Of a stretch of DNA of 64,000 nt, positions 24,704 through 64,000 are shown piece by piece; the stretch's first letter is position 1; every line of letters starts with the position of its first letter. The notes under the pieces are model-generated. The model saw only the letters and a list, made by a program, of their open reading frames with translations, was not told the origin of the DNA and made no database searches. Source of the stretch: Nitrosopumilus sp. (GTDB taxonomy: Archaea > Thermoproteota > Nitrososphaeria > Nitrososphaerales > Nitrosopumilaceae); the NCBI GenBank assembly GCA_965205675.1, contig OZ242186.1, positions 1,312,001-1,376,000 on the forward strand, in the 5' to 3' direction. The position numbers were made by a program, and so were the translations under genes.

Positions 24704-25696
24704 ATGACGCGAAAAATACAAAGCAAAAATATTCAAAACAATGCACAAAATCAAAAACTGCTCTTGGCAAAAAACTATGTCGAACAAGAACTAGAAACCC
24801 AAGGGTATAGAGGTCGCATCAAGTATGATATGACCAACAAAGCTCTGGTCCAATACAGGACCAAGGAGGGAACAATAGCCGTCATCAAAGAAGGCAAACT
24901 GCACATCTTTGAGATGCCAGTCAAAAAGTTCAAGGGGGCACTTCCATTGGAGACAAATCCAGTGGATATGGATTCCATCAGGACAGAAAAGGCAACATGC
25001 TGTAAAAGATGCCATCAATGGAAAAAGACTGCAAACATAACCCGCTGTCCTTGCGGAGGATATCTGGTTCCAAGAAAGAGATTCTCAGTAGATGCTGTAG
25101 AGTCCTGGGATGAGGAAGTCCTCGAGATAGAGTTTGCCAAAAAAGACATCATCCTAGCAAAGAAGACTGATAGGGTACTAGCTCACAAACCAAAGAGATC
25201 AACCCCTAAAGGAATCACCGCAAACCTATCTGGAATGTATGCAGTAGATACTCCGCTAGATACCCACAAGGAAGAGTTGTTGCTAGTTACAGACGGTGAG
25301 GATGTAAGAACCATTCGAGTCAGACCCATATCATCATGCAGTCTGATATTTGTAGCGGCGATAGATTCTGGAATATCTGATGAACAAAAATTTGAGATAC
25401 TCTCAGAATGCAGAAAGGATGATTCTGAGGACAGACAGTTCCTATCTGAGACAGATAGATTTGTCAGAGAACACATCCCACAAAAGGCAAAGAACATGGT
25501 GGATTCATGGAATGAACCATCATATCCTTTCAAACTTGGCAGAAAAGGCAAGACATCAAAGAGAGCCACAAGATCACTCAAGAGAATGGACAAGAGTCAT
25601 GCCTCAGAGAAAACAAGTCTCAAAAACGGAAAAAAGCCACAGTTCTTTGCAAGCTCAGTACCAGCAGCACAGACTCTCAAGAATGAGTCAAAGTAA
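24704..25696 (+). CDS. Hypothetical Zn-ribbon protein A, copy 1
   Basis: CCKRC...CPCGG motif. ATG 24704 gives 330 aa like the other copies but with a different N-terminus. Confidence 0.7.
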   Translation: MTRKIQSKNIQNNAQNQKLLLAKNYVEQELETQGYRGRIKYDMTNKALVQYRTKEGTIAVIKEGKLHIFEMPVKKFKGALPLETNPVDMDSIRTEKATCCKRCHQWKKTANITRCPCGGYLVPRKRFSVDAVESWDEEVLEIEFAKKDIILAKKTDRVLAHKPKRSTPKGITANLSGMYAVDTPLDTHKEELLLVTDGEDVRTIRVRPISSCSLIFVAAIDSGISDEQKFEILSECRKDDSEDRQFLSETDRFVREHIPQKAKNMVDSWNEPSYPFKLGRKGKTSKRATRSLKRMDKSHASEKTSLKNGKKPQFFASSVPAAQTLKNESK

Positions 25697-25776
25697 ATGT
25701 CACTACAAGAAGAGTTTGTGACAGAAAAACATCTTTAAGAAAATAAAAACCACAGCACACCCCCAACTTTTTTTTA

Positions 25777-25867
25777 TGTGACCTGACAATCCTCTCAAAT
25801 CCAATATCATACTATGACACCTGACAGGCAGATTGGATGTGGAGATGGTACAGATGCTTGCAGCATC
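25777..25867 (+). repeat. Type-2 structured element upstream of membrane/coiled-coil genes (8 copies)
   Basis: Other copies start at 27624, 29534, 31402, 34513, 36452, 48218 and 58886. Nested inverted repeats. Confidence 0.85.
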
Positions 25868-25878
25868 ATACAGAAACA

Positions 25879-26304
25879 ATGAACAAAAAAACAACAAACA
25901 AAGTAAGAACCAGTCTAGTACGAAAACAAAACGTGATATTTGTAGCAATGGTAGCAGTTGGGTTATCCCTAACTGTCATGAGCCAGCTTACAGATTCGCG
26001 ACTGCTAAGTGAAGGCATAGCCTTTATTATAGTTGGATTCGTAGGAATGTTAATGTCTTGGACTACGATGGATGTTGGTGCCAGTATCAAAGAAGCAATA
26101 CATGATGTTGGCAGAAAAAACCTAGCCGCATTGGAATCCATTGCATCTTCTCAAAAAGAGATGGGCAAATCTCTCAAAGAGATGGACACGTCTCTCAAAG
26201 AGATGGACACGTCTCTCAAAGAGATAGCATCCTCTCAGAAGGAGATCAAAGACATTCTAGGTACACATACTACAATTCTAAAGAACCTAGAGAAAAAAGA
26301 CTGA
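25879..26304 (+). CDS. Two-TM + heptad-repeat coiled-coil protein, family 1
   Basis: Two TM helices then KEMDTSL/KEIASSQ heptads. Second ATG chosen because the first lies inside the structured element. Confidence 0.75.
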   Translation: MNKKTTNKVRTSLVRKQNVIFVAMVAVGLSLTVMSQLTDSRLLSEGIAFIIVGFVGMLMSWTTMDVGASIKEAIHDVGRKNLAALESIASSQKEMGKSLKEMDTSLKEMDTSLKEIASSQKEIKDILGTHTTILKNLEKKD

Positions 26305-26409
26305 GTTTTCAAAAACCCACAATATTTTTTTGACTGAGTCATGCACTCCAAACCGACATTATTTGTAGCAATACAAATCGACTCAGCGAGTTGGTGTGAG
26401 ATGTGTAAA

Positions 26410-26550
26410 GAAAATCAAAATGATTTTTGAAATTATTCCCACAGAGTTGTAACGAATTATTTCCAAAAGGGAATAGCTCAACCCAACTCTCATGACGGGA
26501 ATCGTTCTACTGGAAACGTTATTTCAGAATAACAGGAGGTTGAACCATTT
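26410..26550 (+). promoter_or_regulatory. Conserved structured cassette leader, copy 1 of 16
   Basis: Hairpins GAAAATCA/TGATTTTT, ATTCCC..AGAGTTG..TTATTTCC/GGGAATA..CAACTCT..GGGAAT and CTGGAA/TTTCAG, then AGGAGG and ATG. Confidence 0.85.
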
Positions 26551-27543
26551 ATGGTCCAACAAAATATTACAAGTGCAAGTATCAAAAATGCACAAAATCA
26601 AAAACTGCTCTTGGCAAAAAACTATGTCGAACAAGAACTAGAAACCCAAGGGTATAGAGGTCGCATCAAGTATGATATGACCAACAAAGCTCTGGTCCAA
26701 TACAGGACCAAGGAGGGAACAATAGCCGTCATCAAAGAAGGCAAACTGCACATCTTTGAGATGCCAGTCAAAAAGTTCAAGGGGGCACTTCCATTGGAGA
26801 CAAATCCAGTGGATATGGATTCCATCAGGACAGAAAAGGCAACATGCTGTAAAAGATGCCATCAATGGAAAAAGACTGCAAACATAACCCGCTGTCCTTG
26901 CGGAGGATATCTGGTTCCAAGAAAGAGATTCTCAGTAGATGCTGTAGAGTCTTGGGATGAAGAGGTCCTCGAGATAGAGTTTGCCAAAAAAGACATCATC
27001 CTAGCAAAGAAGACTGATAGGGTACTATCTCACAAACCAAAGAGATCAACCCCTAAAGGAATCACCGCAAACCTATCTGGAATGTATGCAGTAGATACTC
27101 CGCTAGATACCCACAAGGAAGAGTTGTTGCTAGTTACAGACGGTGAGGATGTAAGAACCATTCGAGTCAGACCCATATCATCATGCAGTCTGATATTTGT
27201 AGCGGCGATAGATTCTGGAATATCTGATGAACAAAAATTTGAGATACTCTCAGAATGCAGAAAGGATGATTCTGAGGACAGACAGTTCCTATCTGAGACA
27301 GATAGATTTGTCAGAGAACACATCCCACAAAAGGCAAAGAACATGGTGGATTCATGGAATGAACCATCATATCCTTTCAAACTTGGCAGAAAAGGCAAGA
27401 CATCAAAGAGAGCCACAAGATCACTCAAGAGAATGGACAAGAGTCATGCCTCAGAGAAAACAAGTCTCAAAAACGGAAAAAAGCCACAGTTCTTTGCAAG
27501 CTCAGTACCAGCAGCACAGACTCTCAAGAATGAGTCAAAGTAA
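26551..27543 (+). CDS. Hypothetical Zn-ribbon protein A, copy 2
   Basis: Near-identical to the other copies; SD AGGAGG upstream. Confidence 0.75.
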   Translation: MVQQNITSASIKNAQNQKLLLAKNYVEQELETQGYRGRIKYDMTNKALVQYRTKEGTIAVIKEGKLHIFEMPVKKFKGALPLETNPVDMDSIRTEKATCCKRCHQWKKTANITRCPCGGYLVPRKRFSVDAVESWDEEVLEIEFAKKDIILAKKTDRVLSHKPKRSTPKGITANLSGMYAVDTPLDTHKEELLLVTDGEDVRTIRVRPISSCSLIFVAAIDSGISDEQKFEILSECRKDDSEDRQFLSETDRFVREHIPQKAKNMVDSWNEPSYPFKLGRKGKTSKRATRSLKRMDKSHASEKTSLKNGKKPQFFASSVPAAQTLKNESK

Positions 27544-27725
27544 ATGTCACTGCAAGAAGAGTTTGTGACAGAAAAACATCTTTAAGAAAATAAAAACCAC
27601 AGCACACCCCCAACTTTTTTTTATGTGACCTGACAATCCTCTCAAATCCAATATCATACTATGACACCTGACAGGCAGATTGGATGTGGAGATGGTACAG
27701 ATGCTTGCAGCATCATACAAAAATC

Positions 27726-28214
27726 ATGAAAGAGGAAACCACAAACAAAGTAAAAACCAGTCTAGTACGAAAACAAAACGTGATATTTGTAGCAATGGTA
27801 GCAGTTGGGTTATCCCTAACTGTCATGAGCCAGCTTACAGATTCGCGACTGCTAAGTGAAGGCATAGCCTTTATTATAGTTGGATTCGTAGGAATGTTAA
27901 TGTCTTGGACTACGATGGATGTTGGTGCCAGTATCAAAGAAGCAATACATGATGTTGGCAGAAAAAACCTAGCCGCATTGGAATCCATTGCAAAATCTCA
28001 GAAGGAGATAGCATCTTCTCAAAAAGAGATAGCATCATCTCAAAAAGAGATAGCATCATCTCAAAAAGAGATAGCATCATCTCAAAAAGAGATAGCATCA
28101 TCTCAAAAAGAGATGGACACGTCTCTCAAGGAGATAGCATCCTCTCAGAATGAGATCAAAGACATTCTAGGTACACATACTACAATTCTAAAGAACCTAG
28201 AGAAAAAAGACTGA
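27726..28214 (+). CDS. Two-TM + coiled-coil protein, family 1
   Basis: Expanded 21-bp KEIASSQ repeat. Confidence 0.75.
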   Translation: MKEETTNKVKTSLVRKQNVIFVAMVAVGLSLTVMSQLTDSRLLSEGIAFIIVGFVGMLMSWTTMDVGASIKEAIHDVGRKNLAALESIAKSQKEIASSQKEIASSQKEIASSQKEIASSQKEIASSQKEMDTSLKEIASSQNEIKDILGTHTTILKNLEKKD

Positions 28215-28319
28215 GTTTTCAAAAACCCACAATATTTTTTTGACTGAGTCATGCACTCCAAACCGACATTATTTGTAGCAATACAAATCGACTCAGCGAG
28301 TTGGTGTGAGATGTGTAAA

Positions 28320-28460
28320 GAAAATCAAAATGATTTTTGAAATTATTCCCACAGAGTTGTAACGAATTATTTCCAAAAGGGAATAGCTCAACCCAACTCT
28401 CATGACGGGAATCGTTCTACTGGAAACGTTATTTCAGAATAAAAGGAGGTTGAACCATTT
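28320..28460 (+). promoter_or_regulatory. Structured cassette leader, copy 2
   Basis: Near-identical to 26410-26550. Confidence 0.85.
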
Positions 28461-29453
28461 ATGGTCCAACAAAATATTACAAGTGCAAGTATCAAAAATG
28501 CACAAAATCAAAAACTGCTCTTGGCAAAAAACTATGTCGAACAAGAACTAGAAACCCAAGGGTACAGAGGTCGCATCAAGTATGATATGACCAACAAAGC
28601 TCTGGTCCAATACAGGACCAAGGAGGGAACAATAGCCGTCATCAAAGAAGGCAAACTGCACATCTTTGAGATGCCAGTCAAAAAGTTCAAGGGGGCACTT
28701 CCATTGGAGACAAATCCAGTGGATATGGATTCCATCAGGACAGAAAAGGCAACATGCTGTAAAAGATGCCATCAATGGAAAAAGACTGCAAACATAACCC
28801 GCTGTCCTTGCGGAGGATATCTGGTTCCAAGAAAGAGATTCTCAGTAGATGCTGTAGAGTCTTGGGATGAAGAGGTCCTCGAGATAGAGTTTGCCAAAAA
28901 AGACATCATCCTAGCAAAGAAGACTGATAGGGTACTATCTCACAAACCAAAGAGATCAACCCCTAAAGGAATCACCGCAAACCTATCTGGAATGTATGCA
29001 GTAGATACTCCGCTAGATACCCACAAGGAAGAGTTGTTGCTAGTTACAGACGGTGAGGATGTAAGAACCATTCGAGTCAGACCCATATCATCATGCAGTC
29101 TGATATTTGTAGCGGCGATAGATTCTGGAATATCTGATGAACAAAAATTTGAGATACTCTCAGAATGCAGAAAGGATGATTCTGAGGACAGACAGTTCCT
29201 ATCTGAGACAGATAGATTTGTCAGAGAACACATCCCACAAAAGGCAAAGAACATGGTGGATTCATGGAATGAACCATCATATCCTTTCAAACTTGGCAGA
29301 AAAGGCAAGACATCAAAGAGAGCCACAAGATCACTCAAGAGAATGGACAAGAGTCATGCCTCAGAGAAAACAAGTCTCAAAAACGGAAAAAAGCCACAGT
29401 TCTTTGCAAGCTCAGTACCAGCAGCACAGACTCTCAAGAATGAGTCAAAGTAA
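28461..29453 (+). CDS. Hypothetical Zn-ribbon protein A, copy 3
   Basis: Tandem copy. Confidence 0.75.
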   Translation: MVQQNITSASIKNAQNQKLLLAKNYVEQELETQGYRGRIKYDMTNKALVQYRTKEGTIAVIKEGKLHIFEMPVKKFKGALPLETNPVDMDSIRTEKATCCKRCHQWKKTANITRCPCGGYLVPRKRFSVDAVESWDEEVLEIEFAKKDIILAKKTDRVLSHKPKRSTPKGITANLSGMYAVDTPLDTHKEELLLVTDGEDVRTIRVRPISSCSLIFVAAIDSGISDEQKFEILSECRKDDSEDRQFLSETDRFVREHIPQKAKNMVDSWNEPSYPFKLGRKGKTSKRATRSLKRMDKSHASEKTSLKNGKKPQFFASSVPAAQTLKNESK

Positions 29454-29635
29454 ATGTCACTGCAAGAAGAGTTTGTGACAGAAAAACATCTTTAAGAAAA
29501 TAAAAACCACAGCACACCCCCAACTTTTTTTTATGTGACCTGACAATCCTCTCAAATCCAATATCATACTATGACACCTGACAGGCAGATTGGATGTGGA
29601 GATGGTACAGATGCTTGCAGCATCATACAAAAATC

Positions 29636-30082
29636 ATGAAAGAGGAAACCACAAACAAAGTAAAAACCAGTCTAGTACGAAAACAAAACGTGATATTTGT
29701 AGCAATGGTAGCAGTTGGGTTATCCCTAACTGTCATGAGCCAGCTTACAGATTCGCGACTGCTAAGTGAAGGCATAGCCTTTATTATAGTTGGATTCGTA
29801 GGAATGTTAATGTCTTGGACTACGATGGATGTTGGTGCCAGTATCAAAGAAGCAATACATGATGTTGGCAGAAAAAACCTAGCCGCATTGGAATCCATTG
29901 CAAAATCTCAGAAGGAGATAGCATCTTCTCAAAAAGAGATGGGCAAATCTCTCAAAGAGATGGACACGTCTCTCAAAGAGATGGACACGTCTCTCAAGGA
30001 GATAGCATCCTCTCAGAATGAGATCAAAGACATTCTAGGTACACATACTACAATTCTAAAGAACCTAGAGAAAAAAGACTGA
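29636..30082 (+). CDS. Two-TM + coiled-coil protein, family 1
   Basis: Tandem copy with a different heptad count. Confidence 0.75.
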   Translation: MKEETTNKVKTSLVRKQNVIFVAMVAVGLSLTVMSQLTDSRLLSEGIAFIIVGFVGMLMSWTTMDVGASIKEAIHDVGRKNLAALESIAKSQKEIASSQKEMGKSLKEMDTSLKEMDTSLKEIASSQNEIKDILGTHTTILKNLEKKD

Positions 30083-30187
30083 GTTTTCAAAAACCCACAA
30101 TATTTTTTTGACTGAGTCATGCACTCCAAACCGACATTATTTGTAGCAATACAAATCGACTCAGCGAGTTGGTGTGAGATGTGTAAA

Positions 30188-30328
30188 GAAAATCAAAATG
30201 ATTTTTGAAATTATTCCCACAGAGTTGTAACGAATTATTTCCAAAAGGGAATAGCTCAACCCAACTCTCATGACGGGAATCGTTCTACTGGAAACGTTAT
30301 TTCAGAATAAAAGGAGGTTGAACCATTT
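30188..30328 (+). promoter_or_regulatory. Structured cassette leader, copy 3
   Basis: Near-identical to copy 1. Confidence 0.85.
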
Positions 30329-31321
30329 ATGGTCCAACAAAATATTACAAGTGCAAGTATCAAAAATGCACAAAATCAAAAACTGCTCTTGGCAAAAAAC
30401 TATGTCGAACAAGAACTAGAAACCCAAGGGTACAGAGGTCGCATCAAGTATGATATGACCAACAAAGCTCTGGTTCAATACAGGACCAAGGAGGGAACAA
30501 TAGCCGTCATCAAAGAAGGCAAACTGCACATCTTTGAGATGCCGGTCAAAAAGTTCAAGGGGGCACTTCCATTGGAGACAAATCCAGTGGATATGGATTC
30601 CATCAGGACAGAAAAGGCAACATGCTGTAAAAGATGCCATCAATGGAAAAAGACTGCAAACATAACCCGCTGTCCTTGCGGAGGATATCTGGTTCCAAGA
30701 AAGAGATTCTCAGTAGATGCTGTAGAGTCCTGGGATGAGGAAGTCCTCGAGATAGAGTTTGCCAAAAAAGACATCATCCTAGCAAAGAAGACTGATAGGG
30801 TACTATCTCACAAACCAAAGAGATCAACCCCTAAAGGAATCACCGCAAACCTATCTGGAATGTATGCAGTAGATACTCCGCTAGATACCCACAAGGAAGA
30901 GTTGTTGCTAGTTACAGACGGTGAGGATGTAAGAACCATTCGAGTCAGACCCATATCATCATGCAGTCTGATATTTGTAGCGGCGATAGATTCTGGAATA
31001 TCTGATGAACAAAAATTTGAGATACTCTCAGAATGCAGAAAGGATGATTCTGAGGACAGACAGTTCCTATCTGAGACAGATAGATTTGTCAGAGAACACA
31101 TCCCACAAAAGGCAAAGAACATGGTGGATTCATGGAATGAACCATCATATCCTTTCAAACTTGGCAGAAAAGGCAAGACATCAAAGAGAGCCACAAGATC
31201 ACTCAAGAGAATGGACAAGAGTCATGCCTCAGAGAAAACAAGTCTCAAAAACGGAAAAAAGCCACAGTTCTTTGCAAGCTCAGTACCAGCAGCACAGACT
31301 CTCAAGAATGAGTCAAAGTAA
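30329..31321 (+). CDS. Hypothetical Zn-ribbon protein A, copy 4
   Basis: Tandem copy. Confidence 0.75.
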   Translation: MVQQNITSASIKNAQNQKLLLAKNYVEQELETQGYRGRIKYDMTNKALVQYRTKEGTIAVIKEGKLHIFEMPVKKFKGALPLETNPVDMDSIRTEKATCCKRCHQWKKTANITRCPCGGYLVPRKRFSVDAVESWDEEVLEIEFAKKDIILAKKTDRVLSHKPKRSTPKGITANLSGMYAVDTPLDTHKEELLLVTDGEDVRTIRVRPISSCSLIFVAAIDSGISDEQKFEILSECRKDDSEDRQFLSETDRFVREHIPQKAKNMVDSWNEPSYPFKLGRKGKTSKRATRSLKRMDKSHASEKTSLKNGKKPQFFASSVPAAQTLKNESK

Positions 31322-31503
31322 ATGTCACTACAAGAAGAGTTTGTGACAGAAAAACATCTTTAAGAAAATAAAAACCACAGCACACCCCCAACTTTTTTTT
31401 ATGTGACCTGACAATCCTCTCAAATCCAATATCATACTATGACACCTGACAGGCAGATTGGATGTGGAGATGGTACAGATGCTTGCAGCATCATACAGAA
31501 ACA

Positions 31504-31992
31504 ATGAACAAAAAAACAACAAACAAAGTAAGAACCAGTCTAGTACGAAAACAAAACGTGATATTTGTAGCAATGGTAGCAGTTGGGTTATCCCTAACTG
31601 TCATGAGCCAGCTTACAGATTCGCGACTGCTAAGTGAAGGCATAGCCTTTATTATAGTTGGATTCGTAGGAATGTTAATGTCTTGGACTACGATGGATGT
31701 TGGTGCCAGTATCAAAGAAGCAATACATGATGTTGGCAGAAAAAACCTAGCCGCATTGGAATCCATTGCAAAATCTCAGAAGGAGATAGCATCATCTCAA
31801 AAAGAGATAGCATCATCTCAAAAAGAGATAGCATCATCTCAAAAAGAGATAGCATCATCTCAAAAAGAGATGGACACGTCTCTCAAGGAGATAGCATCCT
31901 CTCAGAATGAGATCAAAGACATTCTAGGTACACATACTACAATTCTAGAAAAGCATACTACAATTCTAAAGAACCTAGAGAAAAAAGACTGA
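31504..31992 (+). CDS. Two-TM + coiled-coil protein, family 1
   Basis: KEIASSQ and HTTILEK heptad expansions. Confidence 0.75.
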   Translation: MNKKTTNKVRTSLVRKQNVIFVAMVAVGLSLTVMSQLTDSRLLSEGIAFIIVGFVGMLMSWTTMDVGASIKEAIHDVGRKNLAALESIAKSQKEIASSQKEIASSQKEIASSQKEIASSQKEMDTSLKEIASSQNEIKDILGTHTTILEKHTTILKNLEKKD

Positions 31993-32097
31993 GTTTTCAA
32001 AAACCCACAATATTTTTTTGACTGAGTCATGCACTCCAAACCGACATTATTTGTAGCAATACAAATCGACTCAGCGAGTTGGTGTGAGATGTGTAAA

Positions 32098-32238
32098 GAA
32101 AATCAAAATGATTTTTGAAATTATTCCCACAGAGTTGTAACGAATTATTTCCAAAAGGGAATAGCTCAACCCAACTCTCATGACGGGAATCGTTCTACTG
32201 GAAACGTTATTTCAGAATAAAAGGAGGTTGAACCATTT
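32098..32238 (+). promoter_or_regulatory. Structured cassette leader, copy 4
   Basis: Near-identical to copy 1. Confidence 0.85.
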
Positions 32239-33231
32239 ATGGTCCAACAAAATATTACAAGTGCAAGTATCAAAAATGCACAAAATCAAAAACTGCTCTT
32301 GGCAAAAAACTATGTCGAACAAGAACTAGAAACCCAAGGGTACAGAGGTCGCATCAAGTATGATATGACCAACAAAGCTCTGGTTCAATACAGGACCAAG
32401 GAGGGAACAATAGCCGTCATCAAAGAAGGCAAACTGCACATCTTTGAGATGCCGGTCAAAAAGTTCAAGGGGGCACTTCCATTGGAGACAAATCCAGTGG
32501 ATATGGATTCCATCAGGACAGAAAAGGCAACATGCTGTAAAAGATGCCATCAATGGAAAAAGACTGCAAACATAACCCGCTGTCCTTGCGGAGGATATCT
32601 GGTTCCAAGAAAGAGATTCTCAGTAGATGCTGTAGAGTCCTGGGATGAGGAAGTCCTCGAGATAGAGTTTGCCAAAAAAGACATCATCCTAGCAAAGAAG
32701 ACTGATAGGGTACTAGCTCACAAACCAAAGAGATCAACCCCTAAAGGAATCACCGCAAACCTATCTGGAATGTATGCAGTAGATACTCCGCTAGATACCC
32801 ACAAGGAAGAGTTGTTGCTAGTTACAGACGGTGAGGATGTAAGAACCATTCGAGTCAGACCCATATCATCATGCAGTCTGATATTTGTAGCGGCGATAGA
32901 TTCTGGAATATCTGATGAACAAAAATTTGAGATACTCTCAGAATGCAGAAAGGATGATTCTGAGGACAGACAGTTCCTATCTGAGACAGATAGATTTGTC
33001 AGAGAACACATCCCACAAAAGGCAAAGAACATGGTGGATTCATGGAATGAACCATCATATCCTTTCAAACTTGGCAGAAAAGGCAAGACATCAAAGAGAG
33101 CCACAAGATCACTCAAGAGAATGGACAAGAGTCATGCCTCAGAGAAAACAAGTCTCAAAAACGGAAAAAAGCCACAGTTCTTTGCAAGCTCAGTACCAGC
33201 AGCACAGACTCTCAAGAATGAGTCAAAGTAA
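32239..33231 (+). CDS. Hypothetical Zn-ribbon protein A, copy 5
   Basis: Tandem copy heading the full-length cassette. Confidence 0.75.
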   Translation: MVQQNITSASIKNAQNQKLLLAKNYVEQELETQGYRGRIKYDMTNKALVQYRTKEGTIAVIKEGKLHIFEMPVKKFKGALPLETNPVDMDSIRTEKATCCKRCHQWKKTANITRCPCGGYLVPRKRFSVDAVESWDEEVLEIEFAKKDIILAKKTDRVLAHKPKRSTPKGITANLSGMYAVDTPLDTHKEELLLVTDGEDVRTIRVRPISSCSLIFVAAIDSGISDEQKFEILSECRKDDSEDRQFLSETDRFVREHIPQKAKNMVDSWNEPSYPFKLGRKGKTSKRATRSLKRMDKSHASEKTSLKNGKKPQFFASSVPAAQTLKNESK

Positions 33232-34743: not shown

Positions 34744-34884
34744 GAAAATCCATATGGGTTTTTCAAAGTTATTCCTACAGAGGTATTATAGACTATTCTC
34801 AAAGGAGAATAATCCGAGGTATCTCTCATGCCAGGAATCGTCCTACTGGTGACGTTACAGCCAGAATAAAAGGAGTTGACGCCA
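34744..34884 (+). promoter_or_regulatory. Structured cassette leader, copy 5 (variant)
   Basis: Covariant stems ATTCCT/AGGAAT, AGAGGTAT/GTATCTCT and TATTCTC/GAGAATA. Confidence 0.85.
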
Positions 34885-35238
34885 ATGGCACAACCATACA
34901 GTGCAAGTGAAAGCACACAAAACAATTCACAAAATCCCGTCCTAGATGGCGATAAAGTCAGTATCTGCGTGAGTGGCAACCAGGTGCAAATACAAAGACC
35001 TGATTTTGTAACTGACAAGCCAATACAGGATATCAGCGAGAAGAGAGAAATTCTTGCAAAGGACTTGCTTGAAGAATGGGAGGCAGTATCTGTACAAAAG
35101 CAGGGAATCCTGTTTGCAGTATCTGTAGGAGATAGCAGATACCTAGTCAGAGGACATGACAGGGTACCGGCAAACGCCGTAGTGGTAAGAACCCAATCAA
35201 ACCAGCTCATGGGTATTGGGGCAGTAGTAGGAGGTTAA
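34885..35238 (+). CDS. Hypothetical protein with shared leader peptide
   Basis: Starts MAQPYSASESTQNNSQNP; duplicated at 37267. Confidence 0.6.
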   Translation: MAQPYSASESTQNNSQNPVLDGDKVSICVSGNQVQIQRPDFVTDKPIQDISEKREILAKDLLEEWEAVSVQKQGILFAVSVGDSRYLVRGHDRVPANAVVVRTQSNQLMGIGAVVGG

Positions 35239-37126: not shown

Positions 37127-37266
37127 GAAAATCCATATGGGTTTTTCAAAGTTATTCCTACAGAGGTATTATAGACTATTCTCAAAGGAGAATAATCCGA
37201 GGTATCTCTCATGCCAGGAATCGTCCTACTGGAAACGTTATTTCAGAATAAAAGGAGTTGACGCCA
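37127..37266 (+). promoter_or_regulatory. Structured cassette leader, copy 6
   Basis: Like copy 5 but carries the CTGGAA/TTTCAG version of the last hairpin. Confidence 0.85.
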
Positions 37267-37620
37267 ATGGCACAACCATACAGTGCAAGTGAAAGCACAC
37301 AAAACAATTCACAAAATCCCGTCCTAGATGGCGATAAAGTCAGTATCTGCGTGAGTGGCAACCAGGTGCAAATACAAAGACCTGATTTTGTAACTGACAA
37401 GCCAATACATGATATCAGCGAGAAGAGAGAAATTCTTGCAAAGGACTTGCTTGAAGAATGGGAGGCAGTATCTGTACAAAAGCAGGGAATCCTGTTTGCA
37501 GTATCTGTAGGAGATAGCAGATACCTAGTCAGAGGACATGACAGGGTACCGGCAAACGCCGTAGTGGTAAGAACCCAATCAAACCAGCTCATGGGTATTG
37601 GGGCAGTAGTAGGAGGTTAA
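37267..37620 (+). CDS. Hypothetical protein with shared leader peptide
   Basis: Duplicate of 34885-35238. Confidence 0.6.
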   Translation: MAQPYSASESTQNNSQNPVLDGDKVSICVSGNQVQIQRPDFVTDKPIHDISEKREILAKDLLEEWEAVSVQKQGILFAVSVGDSRYLVRGHDRVPANAVVVRTQSNQLMGIGAVVGG

Positions 37621-39923: not shown

Positions 39924-40049
39924 GAGGGAATTTTTTTACCCTCTGGGACAGATCATCCAAACCCGTTTTATCCCATATGGGTCCGGCTCAGCGGGCGGGT
40001 GGAGATGATATAAAATATTCTCACATTTGAGAACAGATAACGTCTAGAT

Positions 40050-48991: not shown

Positions 48992-49819
48992 ATGGTCCGA
49001 CAAAACAGTGCAAGTGAAAGCACACAAAACAATTCACATCAAAAGACAATACAGCACATGACAGATATGGCATCAGCCATATGTGCCATTCAGGCAGAGC
49101 ATGCACATCCCTTGAACAAGGAGTCATACCCCACATATACAGAAACAGAAAAGATACTGTACAATATGCTTACTGAGAACACGGGGGCACACATACTTGA
49201 TTCAGGAGGAGCATATGGCAGACACTGGCAGCAAAACCGTGGGATTGCCGACTTTAACAGCATACCTAGTGTGAAAACCCACAAAATGTATGGTGCAAGA
49301 AAACACGTCTTTGCAATAGTTAACGATATTGCAACGTATGACAAAGCAGTAGACTGTAAATTCCACAAGTTTGCAGCAGCACCAGAAAACCGAGACAAAT
49401 TATGGGTTGAGAACATGGAAGAGTTTGCTGAGACGTATAACGAGGATGACTGGTTAAAAGATCATGGCGCAAACACATACGGTTTCGAGTCCTATTGTGG
49501 CAACCAAGAAATGCAGTACGACTTTCTCACAATAGACGGCCACACATACATCGTCTTGCAATTCCATGGAGGATGCGACATACGCGAAGGATACACAACA
49601 CCACACGTCTTTGAATGCGACTATGATGATTTCATAATTGCAAGCACGCAGATCTCCATTAGCTGCATGTGTAACTGTGCATATTCTGACGGCTTTGACT
49701 GGACTGATGATTCAGGAGACGACGTAGAGTTCTCATGGGATGACGGATTACACTCTTGCTGGAACTGGAAGAATGATGACACATTATTCTGCAGCAAATG
49801 CAAAAGGGTTGCAGCATAG
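48992..49819 (+). CDS. Conserved MGE hypothetical protein with leader peptide
   Basis: MLTENTG.HILDSGGAYGRHWQ and HGGCDIREGYTTP motifs; C-terminal CxxC. Confidence 0.75.
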   Translation: MVRQNSASESTQNNSHQKTIQHMTDMASAICAIQAEHAHPLNKESYPTYTETEKILYNMLTENTGAHILDSGGAYGRHWQQNRGIADFNSIPSVKTHKMYGARKHVFAIVNDIATYDKAVDCKFHKFAAAPENRDKLWVENMEEFAETYNEDDWLKDHGANTYGFESYCGNQEMQYDFLTIDGHTYIVLQFHGGCDIREGYTTPHVFECDYDDFIIASTQISISCMCNCAYSDGFDWTDDSGDDVEFSWDDGLHSCWNWKNDDTLFCSKCKRVAA

Positions 49820-51392: not shown

Positions 51393-51533
51393 GAAGATCC
51401 ATACGGATTTTTCAAAATTATTCCCACAGAGTTGTAACGAATTATTTCCAAAAGGGAATAACTCAACCCAAGCTCTCATGACGGGAATCGTCCTGCTGGA
51501 AACGTTATTTCAGAATAAAAGGAGGAACCGATT
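51393..51533 (+). promoter_or_regulatory. Structured cassette leader, copy 12
   Basis: Conserved element. Confidence 0.85.
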
Positions 51534-52067
51534 ATGGTCCGACAAAACAGTGCAAGTGAAAGCACGCAAAACAATTCACAAAATCCCGCCTTTAATACAA
51601 ATGGTCTTACCCATCACATGGAACAGACTGAACACCAGCAAGAAACACCAAAAGAACTCTCCGATTCCCAAATTTTTGAAAAAATAGAACAGGCGATGAG
51701 AGAACATACACCAGGAGCAAATTCAGGAGTAAGATACGACGTGAAAAACGAACATGTCTACACAGTCATGTATCACGGGAACTCGTGGGATCAAGATGAA
51801 GACGGATATATTCCATACGAGATCTTCACAATTCCAAACTGGGCTGACGATTCAGATATTCGTGCAATGCTCGGGTGTCCTTGCGATGAGGAACAAGCTC
51901 GGGAATACGTACAAGAGTATGAAGACATGACCGTTGATGATTTTCTGGATATAGAAAAAATTCTCCCCACTATAATTTGGTGTGAATTGGAAGAGTATGC
52001 TGAAATTCTTGACGAAATAGAAGAAGCACGAAAACAATATGCGGAATTTTCGGAGAGACAAAATTGA
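51534..52067 (+). CDS. Acidic hypothetical protein with leader peptide
   Basis: Paralogue of 45689. Confidence 0.7.
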   Translation: MVRQNSASESTQNNSQNPAFNTNGLTHHMEQTEHQQETPKELSDSQIFEKIEQAMREHTPGANSGVRYDVKNEHVYTVMYHGNSWDQDEDGYIPYEIFTIPNWADDSDIRAMLGCPCDEEQAREYVQEYEDMTVDDFLDIEKILPTIIWCELEEYAEILDEIEEARKQYAEFSERQN

Positions 52068-52880: not shown

Positions 52881-53120
52881 ATGTCTGAGACAAAAACCCT
52901 CAATCCTTTTGAGCATCTCCCAGAGGATAAACTAGAGATAATCAGAAAGGATTTTGAGCAAAACAACTACAGATCAGATACTTTTGAGGAACATCTAAAG
53001 TCATTGCATGAAGATGATATGATTCCAGAAGAAGTGTTAGACATCATAGAATCAAGAAACAGTGATGACTGGCAAACGGTGAGTTTTGATGAACTTTCAA
53101 AAGAATTGAGTGGTCAATGA
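52881..53120 (+). CDS. Antitoxin of RelE pair 3
   Basis: Acidic; ATGA overlap with RelE. Confidence 0.7.
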   Translation: MSETKTLNPFEHLPEDKLEIIRKDFEQNNYRSDTFEEHLKSLHEDDMIPEEVLDIIESRNSDDWQTVSFDELSKELSGQ

Positions 53121-53425
53121 TTTGGGATTTATCACGCCGACCAAGATTCATCAAACAATTCAAGGGTCTTGATCCACAACTAAAACAAAGAATCCTCAAA
53201 TCATTATCAGAACTTTCCATATCTGATAATCCTGCAGATCAAGGAGAATACAAAATAGGCATGAAAGTATTTGCATACAATGTTGGGAAATATAGAATAA
53301 TCTATACTATTGATTATTTTAACAGTAAGATTATTTTGCATAGAGTATGTGACCACAAATCAGTCTATGGCAAAGACTGGAGAAACCAAAACAAATTTTT
53401 TGAACAAAACATCCAAGACTCATAG
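53117..53425 (+). CDS. RelE/ParE-family toxin 3 (C-terminally extended)
   Basis: KYRIIYTI..HRVCDHKSVYGKD, then TGG at 53378-53380 where paralogues have TAG. Confidence 0.8.
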   Translation: MIWDLSRRPRFIKQFKGLDPQLKQRILKSLSELSISDNPADQGEYKIGMKVFAYNVGKYRIIYTIDYFNSKIILHRVCDHKSVYGKDWRNQNKFFEQNIQDS

Positions 53426-53471: not shown

Positions 53472-53611
53472 GAAAATCAAAGACAGATTTTCAAAATTAT
53501 TCCTACAGAGTTGTGTAGAATTATTCTCATAGAGTGTGATTCAAAGTAACTCTCATGACAGGAATCGTACTGCTGGAGACGTTACTGCCAGAATAAAAGG
53601 AGGAACCAATT
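53472..53611 (+). promoter_or_regulatory. Structured cassette leader, copy 13 (variant)
   Basis: ATTCCT/AGGAAT and AGAGTTG/TAACTCT stems. Confidence 0.82.
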
Positions 53612-53824
53612 ATGGTCCGACAAAACAGTGCAAGTGAAAGCACACAAAACAATTCACAAAATCCCGCCCTTAATACAAATGGTCTCACCCATCACGTGGA
53701 ATGGACTGAGGAGCAGCAAGAAACCCTGCGGTTTCTGCTCGAAGAGCAGGTAGCAAATGAGGAATATTATTCCTCATTGGATGAACCGCACGGAGTCTCG
53801 TGCAACTGTACAGAGTGCAACTAA
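53612..53824 (+). CDS. Small acidic protein with leader peptide and CNCTECN end
   Basis: Paralogue of 43797 and 59617. Confidence 0.65.
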   Translation: MVRQNSASESTQNNSQNPALNTNGLTHHVEWTEEQQETLRFLLEEQVANEEYYSSLDEPHGVSCNCTECN

Positions 53825-54059: not shown

Positions 54060-54593
54060 ATGTCTGATAGAATCCCGGACTGGGAAGACATGCCAGACGG
54101 CGTATCTCTTGTGACACTGTCATGGGAGGACGTGTACGTCAAGGCTCGCAAGGAACTGTTGAGAAATCCGACAAGAGAGGAGACATTGAAGATCTTCGAT
54201 GACATTGCACATCCTATGAGCAATGCAGTACAAGACGACATGCCTGCACATCTTGATGCCCTGATTGAGGAGATGGTCAAAGAATGTCTCAAATCAAAAC
54301 CATACAGTATAGATTCCATGAGTCCAGAAGAACTCGTATCCAGAAAATACTGCCATACATGCCAGGACATACAGGAGACATACTGGGAACTTGGAGTGTG
54401 TGAGAAGAATCCCGAAGGACTCTGCATACCAAAAGACCACGGAAACGACAAAGACGGCATCATAGAGTGCAGTGATGAATGGTGTAACCCGACACAGCAA
54501 ACTGTAGAGACGCAGATCACAAAAGAGTTCGTCCAGAGTCACAACGTGGATGAAAGATGTGCACAGTGTCACCGCATGCTGGAGTCTCAGTAA
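54060..54593 (+). CDS. Cys-rich acidic hypothetical protein
   Basis: Paralogue of the N-terminal half of 60903. Confidence 0.7.
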   Translation: MSDRIPDWEDMPDGVSLVTLSWEDVYVKARKELLRNPTREETLKIFDDIAHPMSNAVQDDMPAHLDALIEEMVKECLKSKPYSIDSMSPEELVSRKYCHTCQDIQETYWELGVCEKNPEGLCIPKDHGNDKDGIIECSDEWCNPTQQTVETQITKEFVQSHNVDERCAQCHRMLESQ

Positions 54594-54594
54594 T

Positions 54595-55401
54595 ATGAAA
54601 AACTCTGAGAAAGCAACAGTTCTGCTAAAAGAGATTGCAGAAGTCTTTTCCAAAAAAGAGTTTGCCTCAAACTGTGCAAAGGTGTTTATCAACGCCAAAG
54701 AAAACGACATACCGTCATCCTCATGGTCAATGGGAAACCAATTACTGATGCTGTTTTCTGGAACAGATGATGCAAGAGGGTACAGGCAATGGGGGCAGGT
54801 AAAGCGCCACGTCAAAAAGGGCTCAAAGGCAATCTACATACTGGTCCCAATGGTAAAGAAGATCAAAGACAAGAAGACAGACGAGGAGAGGACAGTAACT
54901 ATCGGATTCCGGGGAGTGCCTGTATTTAGATACGAGGACACTGAAGGAGAGGCTCTAAAGGCATACACTCCAAGGACTCTGCCTCCGCTATTTGGGCTTG
55001 CAGAAAAAAATGGAATCGACGTGAGATGGACAAACACAAAACAGGGAGAGTACGGCTCAATGAATCATACTGACAAATCCATGACTCTGAGTACTGAGGC
55101 ACCTGACACGTTTTTGCACGAACTGATGCACTGGTATGACGGCAAAAACGTCAAGATGGTAAACGGACAAGACCCTGAACAGGAGACTGTCGCACAGCTT
55201 GGAGCATGTGTGCTTGCAAAACTGTACGGGTATGACTCTGAGAGCTACACCTGGAACTATATCGCATCATACGCCAAGGCAGAGTCTCCGCAAGACGTCG
55301 GGCAGATGTGCTTTAAGGTACTCAGCAGAGTGCAAAAGGCAATCACTGCAATACTTGATGATGCAGAGTCTTTGCCAGCCCTAAAGGTGCCATCAAAATG
55401 A
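54595..55401 (+). CDS. ardC: ArdC-like antirestriction protein (ssDNA-binding N-domain plus zincin-like domain)
   Basis: WSMGNQLL...GYRQW..VKRHVKKGSKAIYILVP...VPVF, FLHELMHW, ETVAQLGA, NYIASY. Confidence 0.8.
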   Translation: MKNSEKATVLLKEIAEVFSKKEFASNCAKVFINAKENDIPSSSWSMGNQLLMLFSGTDDARGYRQWGQVKRHVKKGSKAIYILVPMVKKIKDKKTDEERTVTIGFRGVPVFRYEDTEGEALKAYTPRTLPPLFGLAEKNGIDVRWTNTKQGEYGSMNHTDKSMTLSTEAPDTFLHELMHWYDGKNVKMVNGQDPEQETVAQLGACVLAKLYGYDSESYTWNYIASYAKAESPQDVGQMCFKVLSRVQKAITAILDDAESLPALKVPSK

Positions 55402-56182: not shown

Positions 56183-56204
56183 TTTTTTTTAGAGGAATGT
56201 ACAG

Positions 56205-57123: not shown

Positions 57124-57263
57124 GAAAATCAAAGACAGATTTTCAAAATTATTCCTACAGAGTTGTGTAGAATTATTCTCATAGAGTATGATTCAAAGTA
57201 GCTCTCATGACGGGAATCGTCCTGCTGGTGACGTTACTGCCAGAATAAAAGGAGGAACCAATT
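57124..57263 (+). promoter_or_regulatory. Structured cassette leader, copy 14
   Basis: Variant like copy 13. Confidence 0.82.
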
Positions 57264-57539
57264 ATGGTCCGACAAAACAGTGCAAGTGAAAGCACACAAA
57301 ACAAATCACAGCAAAACAACGATGCAGTAAAAGTCGACATAGAAAATTCAAACGACAGTTCTATGGCAAACAGCAAAAAAGGCATCAAGTTACTAAGAGC
57401 TGAAATACAGGCACACTTTTGCCAAATCCAAGAATACCTGGATGAAAACGATGCAGATCATACCAGGTACGCATTCCATGAAGCAGACACTGCAGCCCAC
57501 AAAATAAGGGATTTGTGTGATATGGAGGCCGGACAATAA
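57264..57539 (+). CDS. Hypothetical protein with leader peptide
   Basis: MVRQNSASESTQ start. Confidence 0.6.
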   Translation: MVRQNSASESTQNKSQQNNDAVKVDIENSNDSSMANSKKGIKLLRAEIQAHFCQIQEYLDENDADHTRYAFHEADTAAHKIRDLCDMEAGQ

Positions 57540-57964: not shown

Positions 57965-57966
57965 AG

Positions 57967-59476: not shown

Positions 59477-59616
59477 GAAGATCCATACGGATTTTCCAAA
59501 GTTGTTCCTACAGAGTTATTTTCAGAATCATCTCAAAAGAGAATGATTCGGGTATCTCTCATGACAGGAATCGTCCTGCTGGAAACGTTATTTCAGAATA
59601 TAGGAGGAAAAGTCAA
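59477..59616 (+). promoter_or_regulatory. Structured cassette leader, copy 15
   Basis: GTTCCT/AGGAAT and GAATCATCTC/GAGAATGATTC stems. Confidence 0.82.
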
Positions 59617-59826
59617 ATGGCTTTACCAAACAATACAAGTACAAGTATAACAAATGTACAAAATCCCGCCTTTTATGGAAAAGGCATTACACCATCCATG
59701 GAATGGACACAAGAACAACAAGAAATCTTGCAAGATCAACTTGAAGAACAGGTTGCAAATGAGGAATACTATGGTACCCTAGATGAACCACATGGATGGA
59801 CATGTAATTGTCTGGAGTGCAACTAA
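59617..59826 (+). CDS. Small acidic protein with CNCLECN end
   Basis: Diverged paralogue of 43797 and 53612. Confidence 0.65.
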   Translation: MALPNNTSTSITNVQNPAFYGKGITPSMEWTQEQQEILQDQLEEQVANEEYYGTLDEPHGWTCNCLECN

Positions 59827-62522: not shown

Positions 62523-62525
62523 AGA

Positions 62526-62900
62526 ATGTCAACGGCAACTGTACAGGGAAAGAGCACCTTTGCGTTTGATAGAACCATAAGAAATGCAAGGCAGCGTCTG
62601 AAGAAGACTGAGAATTACTCCCAGATACCGCACCTTCCTGCAACATACCCTCAACGGCAAAACAGCCTGAACGGAGTGGATGTTACAGTAAGGGCCAAGA
62701 TACTCAAGTGCCATCTTGAGGACACATACCCGCAAAACATCTTTTCTGTAGCAATAACTCGCAGAAAGGAGTACTGTACCATAACAGTGTGTCATGACTT
62801 TGCAAGATCAGAGACGATTGCAGGGATTGCAGCACTCTATGAGAATGATTCCACAAGAATCGTCCTTGATACGTTTGCATCTAATAGCTGTGAGCAATGA
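62526..62900 (+). CDS. Hypothetical protein, LPD29-like
   Basis: Paralogue of 55599. Confidence 0.55.
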   Translation: MSTATVQGKSTFAFDRTIRNARQRLKKTENYSQIPHLPATYPQRQNSLNGVDVTVRAKILKCHLEDTYPQNIFSVAITRRKEYCTITVCHDFARSETIAGIAALYENDSTRIVLDTFASNSCEQ

Positions 62901-63115
62901 CACAGTTCACAGAGAAAAAGGCCCGTAACCTGATAGATACCCAATCCGTCATGCATGTTGGCAATGACACATATCAGGTGAGATCATCGACTCCTGGAAA
63001 ATCATACATCATAGAATCTGAAATATGCGAATGTGCAGGATTCAGGTTTCGGGGGGAATGCTCACATGTGCAAGCTGTAAAGATGTTACAATACAAGGTA
63101 CAACCCAAACAATGA
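62897..63115 (+). CDS. SWIM zinc-finger protein
   Basis: CEC..F.FRGECSHV. Confidence 0.8.
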   Translation: MTQFTEKKARNLIDTQSVMHVGNDTYQVRSSTPGKSYIIESEICECAGFRFRGECSHVQAVKMLQYKVQPKQ

Positions 63116-63336
63116 CAAACCCTAAAAATGTAAAAGAACCATCATACAGTATGATAAAAATGACGGAGATGAATGTGTTTCTGATTGCAGTGAATATTGG
63201 AGGGTTTGTCTGCATCATAACAGCAGAAATCTTTGATGTTCGAATAGTAGGATGGCTCGGAGTTGGACTGGCTGCCGCAAGTATAATGCAGCTTGTGACA
63301 AATAACACTGGAGGCTCAGAAGAGCATGTTTGGTAA
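63112..63336 (+). CDS. Small two-TM protein
   Basis: Paralogue of 56205. Confidence 0.6.
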   Translation: MTNPKNVKEPSYSMIKMTEMNVFLIAVNIGGFVCIITAEIFDVRIVGWLGVGLAAASIMQLVTNNTGGSEEHVW

Positions 63337-63781
63337 AGGTACGGATGTACAAAAAACCAACATCAGTGATCAGGTAAAGGACAATCGATGGCTGTTTGTC
63401 ATTGTATCTCTTGGCATCGGTCTGTTGATAACAGGAGTGGTTTTGTGGAACGAGACACTTGTCGCCATAGGAGCTGCCTTTATTATTGCCGGCGGTGTAG
63501 GGATATACATGATGCTTGCAACAAGACAGGTGGCAAAACAACTACACCTGCGATTCAACGAGCAAAATGAGATTCTTGATACGCAGACTGGAATTCTCAA
63601 AGACATAGCATCGTCTCAGAAGGAGATGGGCAAGTCTCTCAAGGAGATAACATCATCTCAGAAAGAGATAGCATCATCTCAGAAACAAAACCATTCAGAG
63701 ATGATAGACGTTCTAAAAAGAATAGAGACAGGTTTCTCAAATCTCGGAGAAGGTCTCAAGAAAATAGAGAACAAGCTGTAA
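63326..63781 (+). CDS. Two-TM + coiled-coil protein, family 2
   Basis: 5' part near-identical to 58392, 3' end near-identical to 45029. Confidence 0.75.
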   Translation: MFGKGTDVQKTNISDQVKDNRWLFVIVSLGIGLLITGVVLWNETLVAIGAAFIIAGGVGIYMMLATRQVAKQLHLRFNEQNEILDTQTGILKDIASSQKEMGKSLKEITSSQKEIASSQKQNHSEMIDVLKRIETGFSNLGEGLKKIENKL

Positions 63782-63876
63782 AGTACAGTTTGATTTGAGA
63801 GTACGACACCTCAAAACCCATTTTAGTTTTAGCGCAAGCTAGGACCTGATTTATCAGATGGGTGCGAGGTGTCATG

Positions 63877-64000
63877 GAAGATCCACATGGATTTTTCAAA
63901 ATTATTCCCACAGAGTTGTAACGAATTATTTCCAAAAGGGAATAACTCAGCCCAAGATCTCATGACGGGAATCGTCCTGCTGGTGACGTTACTGCCAGAA
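63877..64000 (+). promoter_or_regulatory. Structured cassette leader, copy 16 (cut by window end)
   Basis: Conserved element. Confidence 0.82.

Follow-up and report, generated by a model that had tools for sequence, protein, structure and literature searches.

Genomic setting of the gene array

The window analysed here is a 64,000-nt stretch (C1:1,312,001–1,376,000) of the single-contig genome C1 (2,011,361 bases) of a Nitrosopumilus-type archaeon, and its main feature is an array of small genes which begins at position 24,704 and in which successive gene groups are headed by copies of one leader sequence predicted to fold as RNA. The genome includes an archaeal amoA gene (E = 1.9e-116), which identifies the host as an ammonia-oxidising archaeon; these archaea are globally abundant and have no genetic tools. 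The window falls in an island (approximately 1.25–1.40 Mb) where the GC content rises to 0.35–0.43 compared with 33.7% for the genome, and a tyrosine recombinase gene at C1:1,249,268 marks the left edge of this island.

The array extends for approximately 45 kb to position ~70,000, some 6 kb beyond the end of the window. An earlier note on this DNA (the original prediction) had described co-oriented and tightly coupled small genes, and this is borne out by the 80 open reading frames (ORFs) called between 24,704 and 70,067, all of which (80/80) are on the + strand, with 49 encoding fewer than 150 amino acids and with 38 of the 79 junctions between them overlapping or separated by no more than 5 nt. 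It should be noted that these are naive ORF calls and that the overlapping ORFs at 46517, 50430, 44616 and 63025, plus a few others, are doubtful. The + strand has an AT skew of +0.18 to +0.27 from 24 kb onwards.

The VirB4- and VirD4-like ATPases noted earlier are both found (Table 1), and together 7597–9438 and 9439–11991 provide the pair of VirB4/TrbE and VirD4/TraG homologues that marks out thaumarchaeal integrative-conjugative elements (ICEs). The partition module said to adjoin the array is present as a ParM-like gene which is divergent from it, with a 76% identical gene at the same position in the related genome G269, and related elements keep the block beside this same gene. The block is a conserved accessory module of an integrated conjugative-type element.

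A repeated leader precedes 18 gene groups

By repeat search, 15 intergenic sites in the window were found to share a conserved element. When this was extended by a profile search (nhmmer) and a covariance model (R1), 19 copies were found in the genome, 18 of which are co-oriented between 26,410 and ~68,150, with 16 of these in the window (the last is cut by the window end). Each leader is a module of approximately 200–250 nt consisting of five helices (H1–H5), a strong Shine-Dalgarno (SD) site, a start codon, and two stems, S1 and S2, that fall in approximately the first 15 codons of the following ORF, and at the 3′ end the order is AAAGGAGG, a spacer of ~8 nt, and ATG. This predicted mRNA leader, repeated 18-fold, supported by covariation and reaching into the first codons, is the defining new feature of the array. 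It had gone unnoticed in the original prediction, as had the two sets of tandem units, the four ParE/RelE-type toxin genes, and the continuation of the array beyond the window.

The helices were proposed by RNAalifold from 14 copies (H1, the long-range H2 and H3 around H4, and H5), and covariation was assessed in 46 distinct copies, taken from metagenome contigs as well as several genomes. The partners pair in 94.4% of 1,284 cells compared with 84.5% when shuffled, and 24 of the 29 pairs show changes on both sides where 12.6 are expected. None of 500 shuffles attains any of the five covariation measures, and slid partners are only 32.7–57.7% paired. Among 1,057 cells, G–T occurs 102 times and A–C 29 times, and this excess indicates that it is the sense strand that folds, as expected for an RNA leader and not for a template-strand single-stranded DNA (ssDNA) promoter. 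No Rfam 15 family matched the window at gathering score, and three chance-level Rfam matches in 43500–48000, a region which includes three leaders, do not fall on a leader. We also considered by eye whether a conserved unpaired stretch might be a hammerhead, k-turn or C/D-box, and rejected these readings as the core positions do not fit.

Folded to minimum energy, 12 distinct leaders take one of two near-equal states, one in which H2 is formed and the SD site is free, and another in which the 5′ arm of H2 is paired with the SD site (the probability of the SD site being paired ranges from 0.26 to 0.90). These modelled folds are no more than suggestive of a two-state leader at the SD site.

Conservation extends ~50 nt into the ORF, such that unrelated first proteins carry a common polar N-terminal tag (MVRQNSASESTQNNSQNP and variants). 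In this region S1 pairs +16 to +20 with +29 to +33, and S2 pairs +23 to +27 with +39 to +46; the two cross, and judging from the sequences they may form an H-type pseudoknot or else be alternatives. At two of the S1 pairs the counts are GC 12 and AU 9, and AU 12 and GC 10, respectively, and S1 is 83.5% paired compared with 73.3% when shuffled and 11–42% when slid. S2 arms match their own partner at 4.42 of 5 positions compared with 3.43 for arms of another type searched alike, and both stems reach at least 4/5 in 23 of the 31 anchored sequences (there were 39 distinct sequences, eight of which had no anchor). The compensatory changes in S1 and S2 alter the encoded peptide. In several copies the first ORF behind the leader is only 14–31 amino acids long, homologues of the acidic protein elsewhere have no tag, and the tag region in the AlphaFold model of the acidic 177-amino acid protein is disordered (residues 1–39 have a predicted local distance difference test score, pLDDT, below 50). 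The unrelated or tiny first ORFs, the tagless homologues and the disorder together indicate that the tag is an RNA constraint and not a protein signal. The tag sequence is native to the N-terminus of the 330-amino acid family found in the first tandem units, from which, on sequence grounds, it has probably spread.

In each flank family, an oligo-T run lies ~95 nt upstream of H1 and is followed by a TATA-like word ~45–60 nt upstream of it. Oligo-T runs are the usual archaeal termination signal, and 28 of the 30 runs of at least six T on the + strand are intergenic. The candidate leader promoters are weak TATA-box matches which differ between flank families. We had also considered CCAAACC as an element-wide signal resembling a transcription factor B recognition element, and rejected it (0.147/kb in the island and 0.096/kb in the genome, mostly within one repeat family).

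The leaders also set the array apart from host genes, which have a TATA-like peak 28–32 nt before the ATG and hence mRNAs that look leaderless, and only 12 of 954 long host ORFs have an upstream GGAGG compared with 9 of 55 island ORFs. A literature search turned up nothing specific on transcription starts or leaderless mRNAs in Nitrosopumilus. The mobile element would use long, structured, SD-led mRNAs in a host with leaderless-looking genes.

Table 1. Features of the window and of the adjoining end of the array, in order of position (window coordinates; R1, covariance model score).
Feature	Position	Strand	Evidence
VirB4/HerA-type conjugation ATPase gene	7597..9438	+	NCBIfam VirB4-like CD1110 7.3e-39, CedB 9.2e-16
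VirD4/TraG-like coupling ATPase gene (weak)	9439..11991	+	NCBIfam VirD4-like CD1115 4.1e-09; Pfam TraG-D_C 5.4e-05
TBP homologue encoded by the element	12799..13305	+	Pfam TBP 4e-12
ParM/actin-like partition ATPase gene	23062..23916	-	Pfam MreB_Mbl 9.1e-08; PHROG 'partition protein' 1.9e-11
Five-fold tandem unit (1847–1910 nt): 330-aa zinc-ribbon gene and coiled-coil membrane gene	24704..33231	+	Repeat search, 99–100% identical
Leader copy 1 (H1–H5, SD, ATG)	26410..26553	+	R1, 144–146 bits across copies 1–4
Leader copies 2–4, identical or near-identical to copy 1	28320–28463, 30188–30331, 32098–32241	+	R1
Leader copy 5, heads unit of 117-aa ORF, 88-aa ORF, SNase and coiled-coil genes	34744..34887	+	R1 151.8 bits
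SNase gene	35753–36424	+	Pfam 2.1e-06
Leader copy 6, heads 117-aa ORF and 739-aa GHKL-like gene	37127..37269	+	R1 155.7 bits
Leader copy 7, then 30-aa ORF overlapping TTG start of 881-aa GHKL/HSP90-like gene	40045..40184	+	R1 132.4 bits
Leader copy 8, heads acidic 97-aa ORF 43797–44090	43656..43799	+	R1 147.5 bits; shared N-terminal tag
Leader copy 9, heads acidic 168-aa ORF; S1/S2 at ~45704–45734 in ORF	45547..45691	+	R1 156.8 bits
ParE/RelE-type toxin genes (four)	47126–47389, 51077–51292, 53117..53425, 56763–57032	+	Pfam ParE_toxin or ParE-like toxin 4.4e-07 to 1.2e-03; PHROG RelE-like toxin
Leader copy 10, directly after toxin gene 47126–47389	47490..47631	+	R1 151 bits
Leader copy 11, heads 275-aa gene (phrog_11344, 1.1e-30)	48851..48994	+	R1 142.3 bits
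Leader copy 12, heads acidic 177-aa ORF 51534–52067	51393..51536	+	R1 162.2 bits
Leader copy 13, heads operon holding ArdC-like gene	53472..53614	+	R1 139.6 bits
ArdC-like gene (ArdC-N and HExxH peptidase motif)	54550..55401	+	Pfam ArdcN 22.4 bits (cut-off 22.6); PHROG anti-restriction 1.8e-10
Leader copy 14, heads 91-aa ORF and DUF2958-like gene 57539–57964	57124..57266	+	R1 141.5 bits
Leader copy 15, heads 11-ORF unit including LPD29-like/SWIM-like pair 62526–63115	59477..59619	+	R1 137.9 bits
Leader copy 16 (3′ end cut), first of three tandem units	63877..64000	+	R1 120.4 bits
Three-fold tandem unit (~2.07 kb): 198-aa, 142-aa, 105-aa and membrane coiled-coil genes	63877 to ~70,000	+	Repeat and profile search
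Leader copies beyond the window, in three-fold tandem	window-equivalent 65,955 and 68,012	+	Profile/covariance search

Gene families in the array

The array begins with five tandem units, in which copies 2–5 of the 330-amino acid gene are headed by a leader and copy 1 is not, having its own clear TATA-like box at 24575–24590 instead. The five units differ in their number of internal 21-nt repeats, which argues against an assembly artefact. The coiled-coil membrane genes which close many of the units carry such 21-nt tandem repeats (seven residues, KEIASSQ-like) at 27995–28156, 31773–31913, 26155–26225, 36830–36942, 48644–48723 and 58713–58772, and the number of repeats (2.9–7.7 units) varies between otherwise near-identical gene copies. 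These membrane genes show a weak match to the SEC10/PgrA surface-exclusion domain (6.7e-05, far under the cut-off). The 330-amino acid family has 32 homologues, all of them unnamed, and we make no assignment on the basis of a lone PcfJ-like lead in the protein atlas (0.78), as the AlphaFold2 model is poor (pLDDT 55.9).

The ArdC-like gene of the original prediction stands. It is predicted to encode an ArdC-N domain followed by an HExxH metallopeptidase, and may protect incoming DNA from restriction. The protein has 427 homologues, with PF08401 found in 32 of 120 among the matches listed and some named ArdC by their sources. The C-terminal HExxH motif is HELMH, there are weak matches to peptidases (E = 0.023–0.14), and homologues have been named as M48 family peptidases. 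No match to the protein was found amongst PDB sequences at E values up to 1.

Other families proposed for the array fared less evenly. The protein encoded by 57539–57964, which had been called DUF2958-like, has no direct match to PF11171, and it is called DUF2958-like through its homologues (8 of 32 aligned homologues match, best 4.6e-06). For the LPD29-like protein (62526–62900) there is only a sub-threshold match to PF18847 (E = 0.027, 15.6 bits compared with a cut-off of 27), and for the SWIM protein (55958–56182) the profile is likewise sub-threshold (PF04434, E = 0.039, 14 bits compared with 19.6) and the CxCxnCxH pattern is present in both paralogues; the second of these, 62897–63115, has no Pfam match and is called SWIM-like as a paralogue with this pattern. 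A possible PC4-like protein was not recovered, with no match among the 50 array proteins scanned at E values up to 2. Pfam scans also gave no match to a single-stranded DNA-binding protein (SSB) or methyltransferase in the array.

The four ParE-type toxin genes each close a unit, and each is preceded by a small ORF that is a candidate antitoxin (the lowest E value, 4.4e-07 to ParE_toxin, is that of 47126–47389). Two longer, neighbouring genes each encode a weak GHKL/HSP90-like ATPase N-domain, with 40261–42906 (881 amino acids) matching the NCBIfam HSP90 family (5.6e-10) and 37704–39923 (739 amino acids) having a weak match to the HtpG N-domain (E = 0.088). Both GHKL-like genes are specific to the array of this genome and are found in neither G269 nor G327.

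Five ORFs had been singled out as acidic, and D plus E exceeds K plus R in each (20/3 for 43797, 36/16 for 45689, 20/7 for 47847, 40/12 for 51534 and 12/2 for 53612). Four of these five are the first ORF behind a leader and share the tag. The one acidic family modelled is that of the 177-amino acid protein (51534), whose AlphaFold2 model has a pLDDT of 76.8 (a confident fold) and resembles neither solved nor viral structures; the family has five representatives in 1.84 billion proteins and no usable match in the protein atlas. The acidic ORFs may or may not, therefore, have the DNA-mimic or anti-defence roles suggested in the original prediction.

Distribution and rearrangement in relatives

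The covariance model identified 15 copies of the leader in G269 (two arrays). It also identified 4, 3, 1 and 1 copies in G327, G340, G305 and G310, respectively, which with the genome described here makes five of 61 genomes of the genus. Across 47 other genera of the class, represented by 115 genomes, the model found no copies. In a species-genome collection the exact core motif has 16 loci, all but one of them labelled Nitrosopumilus, and 11 loci lie on nine marine metagenome contigs. In these searches the leader is restricted to this group of elements. We note that L060, a 10-kb contig binned as Nitrospinales, has one full copy of the leader (100.6 bits), and this is either a mis-binned Nitrosopumilus element or a cross-domain occurrence.

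The nineteenth copy in the genome lies on its own outside the island (C1:1153612–1153757, minus strand, 158 kb upstream), behind a ParE/antitoxin pair, beside several insertion sequence (IS) transposase genes, and before a frameshifted fragment of the 330-amino acid gene. It looks like a relocated and decaying piece of the array.

The array beside the ParM-like gene is kept in G269. In G327 the same families form an array of ~9 kb, which lies behind genes matching the upstream part of the island. Families common to the relatives include the DUF2958-like gene, the SNase and the LPD29-like and SWIM-like pair, as well as the coiled-coil membrane proteins, a small acidic zinc-knuckle protein, a 208/213-amino acid pair and a Cys-rich acidic pair. 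An ArdC-like gene with 73% identity is found in G269 too, where the 330-amino acid unit is present in three tandem copies. The ParE toxin has no match in G269, and one ParE gene is kept in G327.

The order of units differs among these genomes, and we looked at this further in contigs from four public runs (three studies), where the units of this strain are present at depths of 6–12 and related variants are far deeper. Leader-to-leader joints link 48870 to 53551 in all four runs and 48917 to 51473 in two, and joints between coiled-coil genes are also seen. As the contigs were matched at 90% likeness, the joints belong to related elements, in which unit order is thereby shown to change at the repeats. 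In two metagenome runs, variants of 48400–50200, 52600–53800 and 56200–58000 reach depths of hundreds to thousands compared with ~6–12 for the exact strain, indicating that related elements or hosts are far more abundant there.

Interpretation of the array

We propose that the region comprises 18 or more transcription units in series, and not one long operon. In each, an oligo-T run would end the previous unit and be followed by a TATA-like box, the RNA leader, the SD site and start codon, and S1 and S2. The leader would be a cis-acting RNA that places all of the units under common post-transcriptional control. The likeliest control point would be access to the ribosome-binding site, with the 5′ arm of H2 pairing with either its H2 partner or the SD site, and control of read-through or of RNA stability would be another possibility. 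The ArdC-like, DUF2958-like, nuclease, toxin-antitoxin and unknown genes would plausibly be switched on jointly, on induction or on entry into a new cell. We regard a regulon defined by a structured RNA leader as probable, and coordinated post-transcriptional control by that leader as the best reading, with a somewhat better than even chance of being correct. An establishment or anti-defence purpose for this regulon is a more tentative suggestion, which we rate a little short of even.

Several observations weigh against this proposal or parts of it. The unit boundaries, transcription starts and timing are predictions from DNA sequence, and no right-hand attachment repeat of tRNA-Phe or tRNA-Leu was found. 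The alignments used for covariation, having been fitted to the model, lean towards structure, and many of the copies are paralogues from one genome or from close kin, such that there are fewer events than cells. Single-sequence folding energies are unexceptional (z = -1.65 for RNA and -0.99 for DNA), and the alternative pairing of the SD site cannot covary because the SD site is invariant. With regard to purpose, nothing in the array is recognised as a defence family by PADLOC, the majority of the 80 ORFs could not be assigned to a family, and the models of the acidic 177-amino acid protein (best Foldseek E values of 0.093 against PDB and 0.24 against BFVD, and a best VIA Z of 4.5) and of the 330-amino acid protein (best VIA Z of 5.4) match no known fold. 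Furthermore, the genes of the array are for the most part conserved from genome to genome, whereas the anti-defence islands of bacterial plasmids turn over fast.

The most serious of the other explanations, which we nevertheless consider improbable, is that the array is read as one or a few long transcripts with the leaders acting as intercistronic processing, stabilising or re-initiation elements. The fold, SD site and strict co-orientation fit this as well as they fit separate units, and the weak and variable candidate promoters, together with the clear TATA-like box before the first gene of the array, would be in keeping with it. What speaks for separate units instead is that an oligo-T run precedes nearly every leader, with such runs being almost entirely intergenic, and that the lone leader copy and its ORF survive elsewhere in the chromosome.

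Repeats of this kind might also be no more than a scaffold for recombination, serving as integron-like exchange sites or substrates for homologous recombination and having no regulatory role. The five-fold and three-fold amplifications are bounded by repeats, unit order differs in relatives with leader-to-leader joints in the contigs of four runs, and the ParE-type pairs at unit ends resemble large chromosomal integrons, in which such toxin-antitoxin pairs occur. An integron cassette array, with an integron integrase beside it and attC sites at the 3′ end of single promoterless ORFs, is not what is seen, however, since the nearest tyrosine recombinase is ~87 kb away, the repeat carries the SD site, start codon and first codons, always in frame and in one orientation, and the units hold 2–11 ORFs and are punctuated by oligo-T terminators. 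The compensatory changes that keep the five helices as well as S1 and S2 would be needless for simple substrates, and we give this explanation little credence.

A true ssDNA leading region, in which the hairpins would be Frpo- or ssi-like promoters or priming sites on the incoming strand, is if anything slightly less likely again. The co-orientation of all genes, a repeated structured element before each unit, the presence of ArdC-N (an ssDNA binder in bacterial elements according to the relevant part of PMC5512222), and a block that is richer in GC than the host, as described for bacterial leading regions in part of PMC13478746, are all in its favour. The genome has no matches to the relaxase families PF03432, PF08751, PF03389 and PF02486 (these were the only families tried, and control genomes do match), and the survey of thaumarchaeal ICEs, in the section concerned with transfer, also reports no relaxase and proposes transfer of double-stranded DNA (dsDNA; PMC6563490). 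The fold prefers the sense strand, as seen in the G–T to A–C asymmetry (102 compared with 29), the DNA fold has a z of -0.99, no TATA-like box lies within a stem, and the structure runs through the SD site into the ORF, fitting mRNA. The original prediction of an archaeal leading or establishment region thus holds as far as the conjugative-type element and the establishment-like genes are concerned, and is not upheld in its strict sense, with no relaxase of the four families in the genome, no origin of transfer (oriT) located, and a sense-strand fold.

The early-gene region of an integrated virus is very improbable. The many small co-oriented genes that follow repeated promoter-like elements are reminiscent of phage early regions, and there are a few PHROG matches, but the element has VirB4/VirD4-like and ParM-like genes, Pfam and PHROG scans of the window matched neither a capsid nor a terminase family, and the leader core motif has 0 matches in a viral contig collection. 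We dropped readings of the array as a diversity-generating retroelement, retron, miniature inverted-repeat transposable element or Borg; no reverse-transcriptase family is listed in the Pfam scans, and the repeats are invariably in a single orientation and include a start codon in frame.

Returning to common control by the leader, a candidate for its reader would be the small acidic zinc-knuckle protein encoded by 53612–53824, which is the first ORF of several units, or the TBP/TFB of the element. The TBP homologue has a 55% identical counterpart adjoining a related array in G269, and could help to drive element-specific promoters. A bolder proposal, which we think unlikely as it stands, is that the leader represents a new kind of cis-regulatory RNA in archaea, with a three-way-junction-like 5′ domain and a pseudoknot, recognised by one element-encoded reader so that ~18 units fire together. 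If true, no establishment regulon would have been described before this one for archaeal conjugation, and it would be one that is SD-led in an otherwise leaderless host.

Comparison with known systems

Bacterial leading regions, in the account given in part of PMC11541004, are defined by the position of oriT, template-strand Frpo promoters, and the orientation of genes on the T-strand, and of these only co-orientation is found here. The resemblance otherwise lies in the co-oriented small genes, an ArdC-type gene, toxin-antitoxin pairs and a repeated structured element. The differences are that no relaxase was found here, that it is the sense strand which carries the structure, with the ribosome-binding site and first codons inside it, that the array has no SSB or methyltransferase match, that its gene content is largely conserved, and that the elements of the archaeal host are thought to move dsDNA.

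By analogy, plasmid p576 appears to be a closer functional parallel. Four of its establishment promoters, including that of ardC, share a short DNA operator of the ribbon-helix-helix repressor Reg576, as set out in the portion of PMC6294495 dealing with them. Both systems would have separate promoters with one control element and coordinated, possibly transient, expression without ssDNA, and they differ in that p576 has four promoters and a DNA operator whereas here there are 18 units and a folded RNA of ~200–250 nt.

The element is similar to thaumarchaeal ICEs (Krupovic 2019, PMC6563490) in being integrated into the chromosome of an ammonia-oxidising archaeon and in having a VirB4/VirD4 pair and a transcription-factor homologue of its own but no relaxase. 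The transcription factor seen here is a TBP homologue, where those elements have a TFIIB homologue. That paper describes conjugation and replication modules, and its main text makes no mention of ArdC, anti-restriction or a repeated leader (such genes may be listed in its supplementary tables). Parts of the array are also reminiscent of the polyvalent proteins (Iyer 2017, PMC5512222, in the sections covering these domains) in combining ArdC-N with a metallopeptidase, an LPD-type domain (weak here) and zinc ribbons. In our array the domains are spread over many small genes rather than joined in giant fusions, and DUF2958 is not mentioned in the text of that paper.

Phage T4 gene 32 and the ribosomal-protein operons have single-copy autoregulatory mRNA operators, in which the ribosome-binding site is the seat of pseudoknots or alternative pairings. 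The leader is like these in having structure around the SD site and start codon with stems that continue into the coding region, and unlike them in being present as 18 copies before unrelated genes on one mobile element, within a host that has leaderless-looking mRNAs.

Very little is known of how the genes of archaeal conjugative elements are controlled or how such elements survive on entry into a new cell, and the array offers a testable handle, with one RNA module before 18 gene groups, among them the group holding the sole recognisable gene of anti-restriction type. Were the leader to act as a common switch, it would define the co-regulated gene set of the element, and dozens of small unknown proteins would become candidates for a part in establishment, exclusion or counter-defence in ammonia-oxidising archaea.

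Other features of the element

The VirB4-like protein encoded by 7597–9438 also has Pfam matches to the TraG P-loop domain (3.9e-15) and DUF87 (3.9e-08), and IS fragments are present within the first 24 kb of the window. Just upstream of the VirB4/VirD4-like pair, 4271–6739 is a single 822-amino acid gene in which a type II N6-methyltransferase is fused to a BsuBI/PstI-type endonuclease (PADLOC 3e-251).

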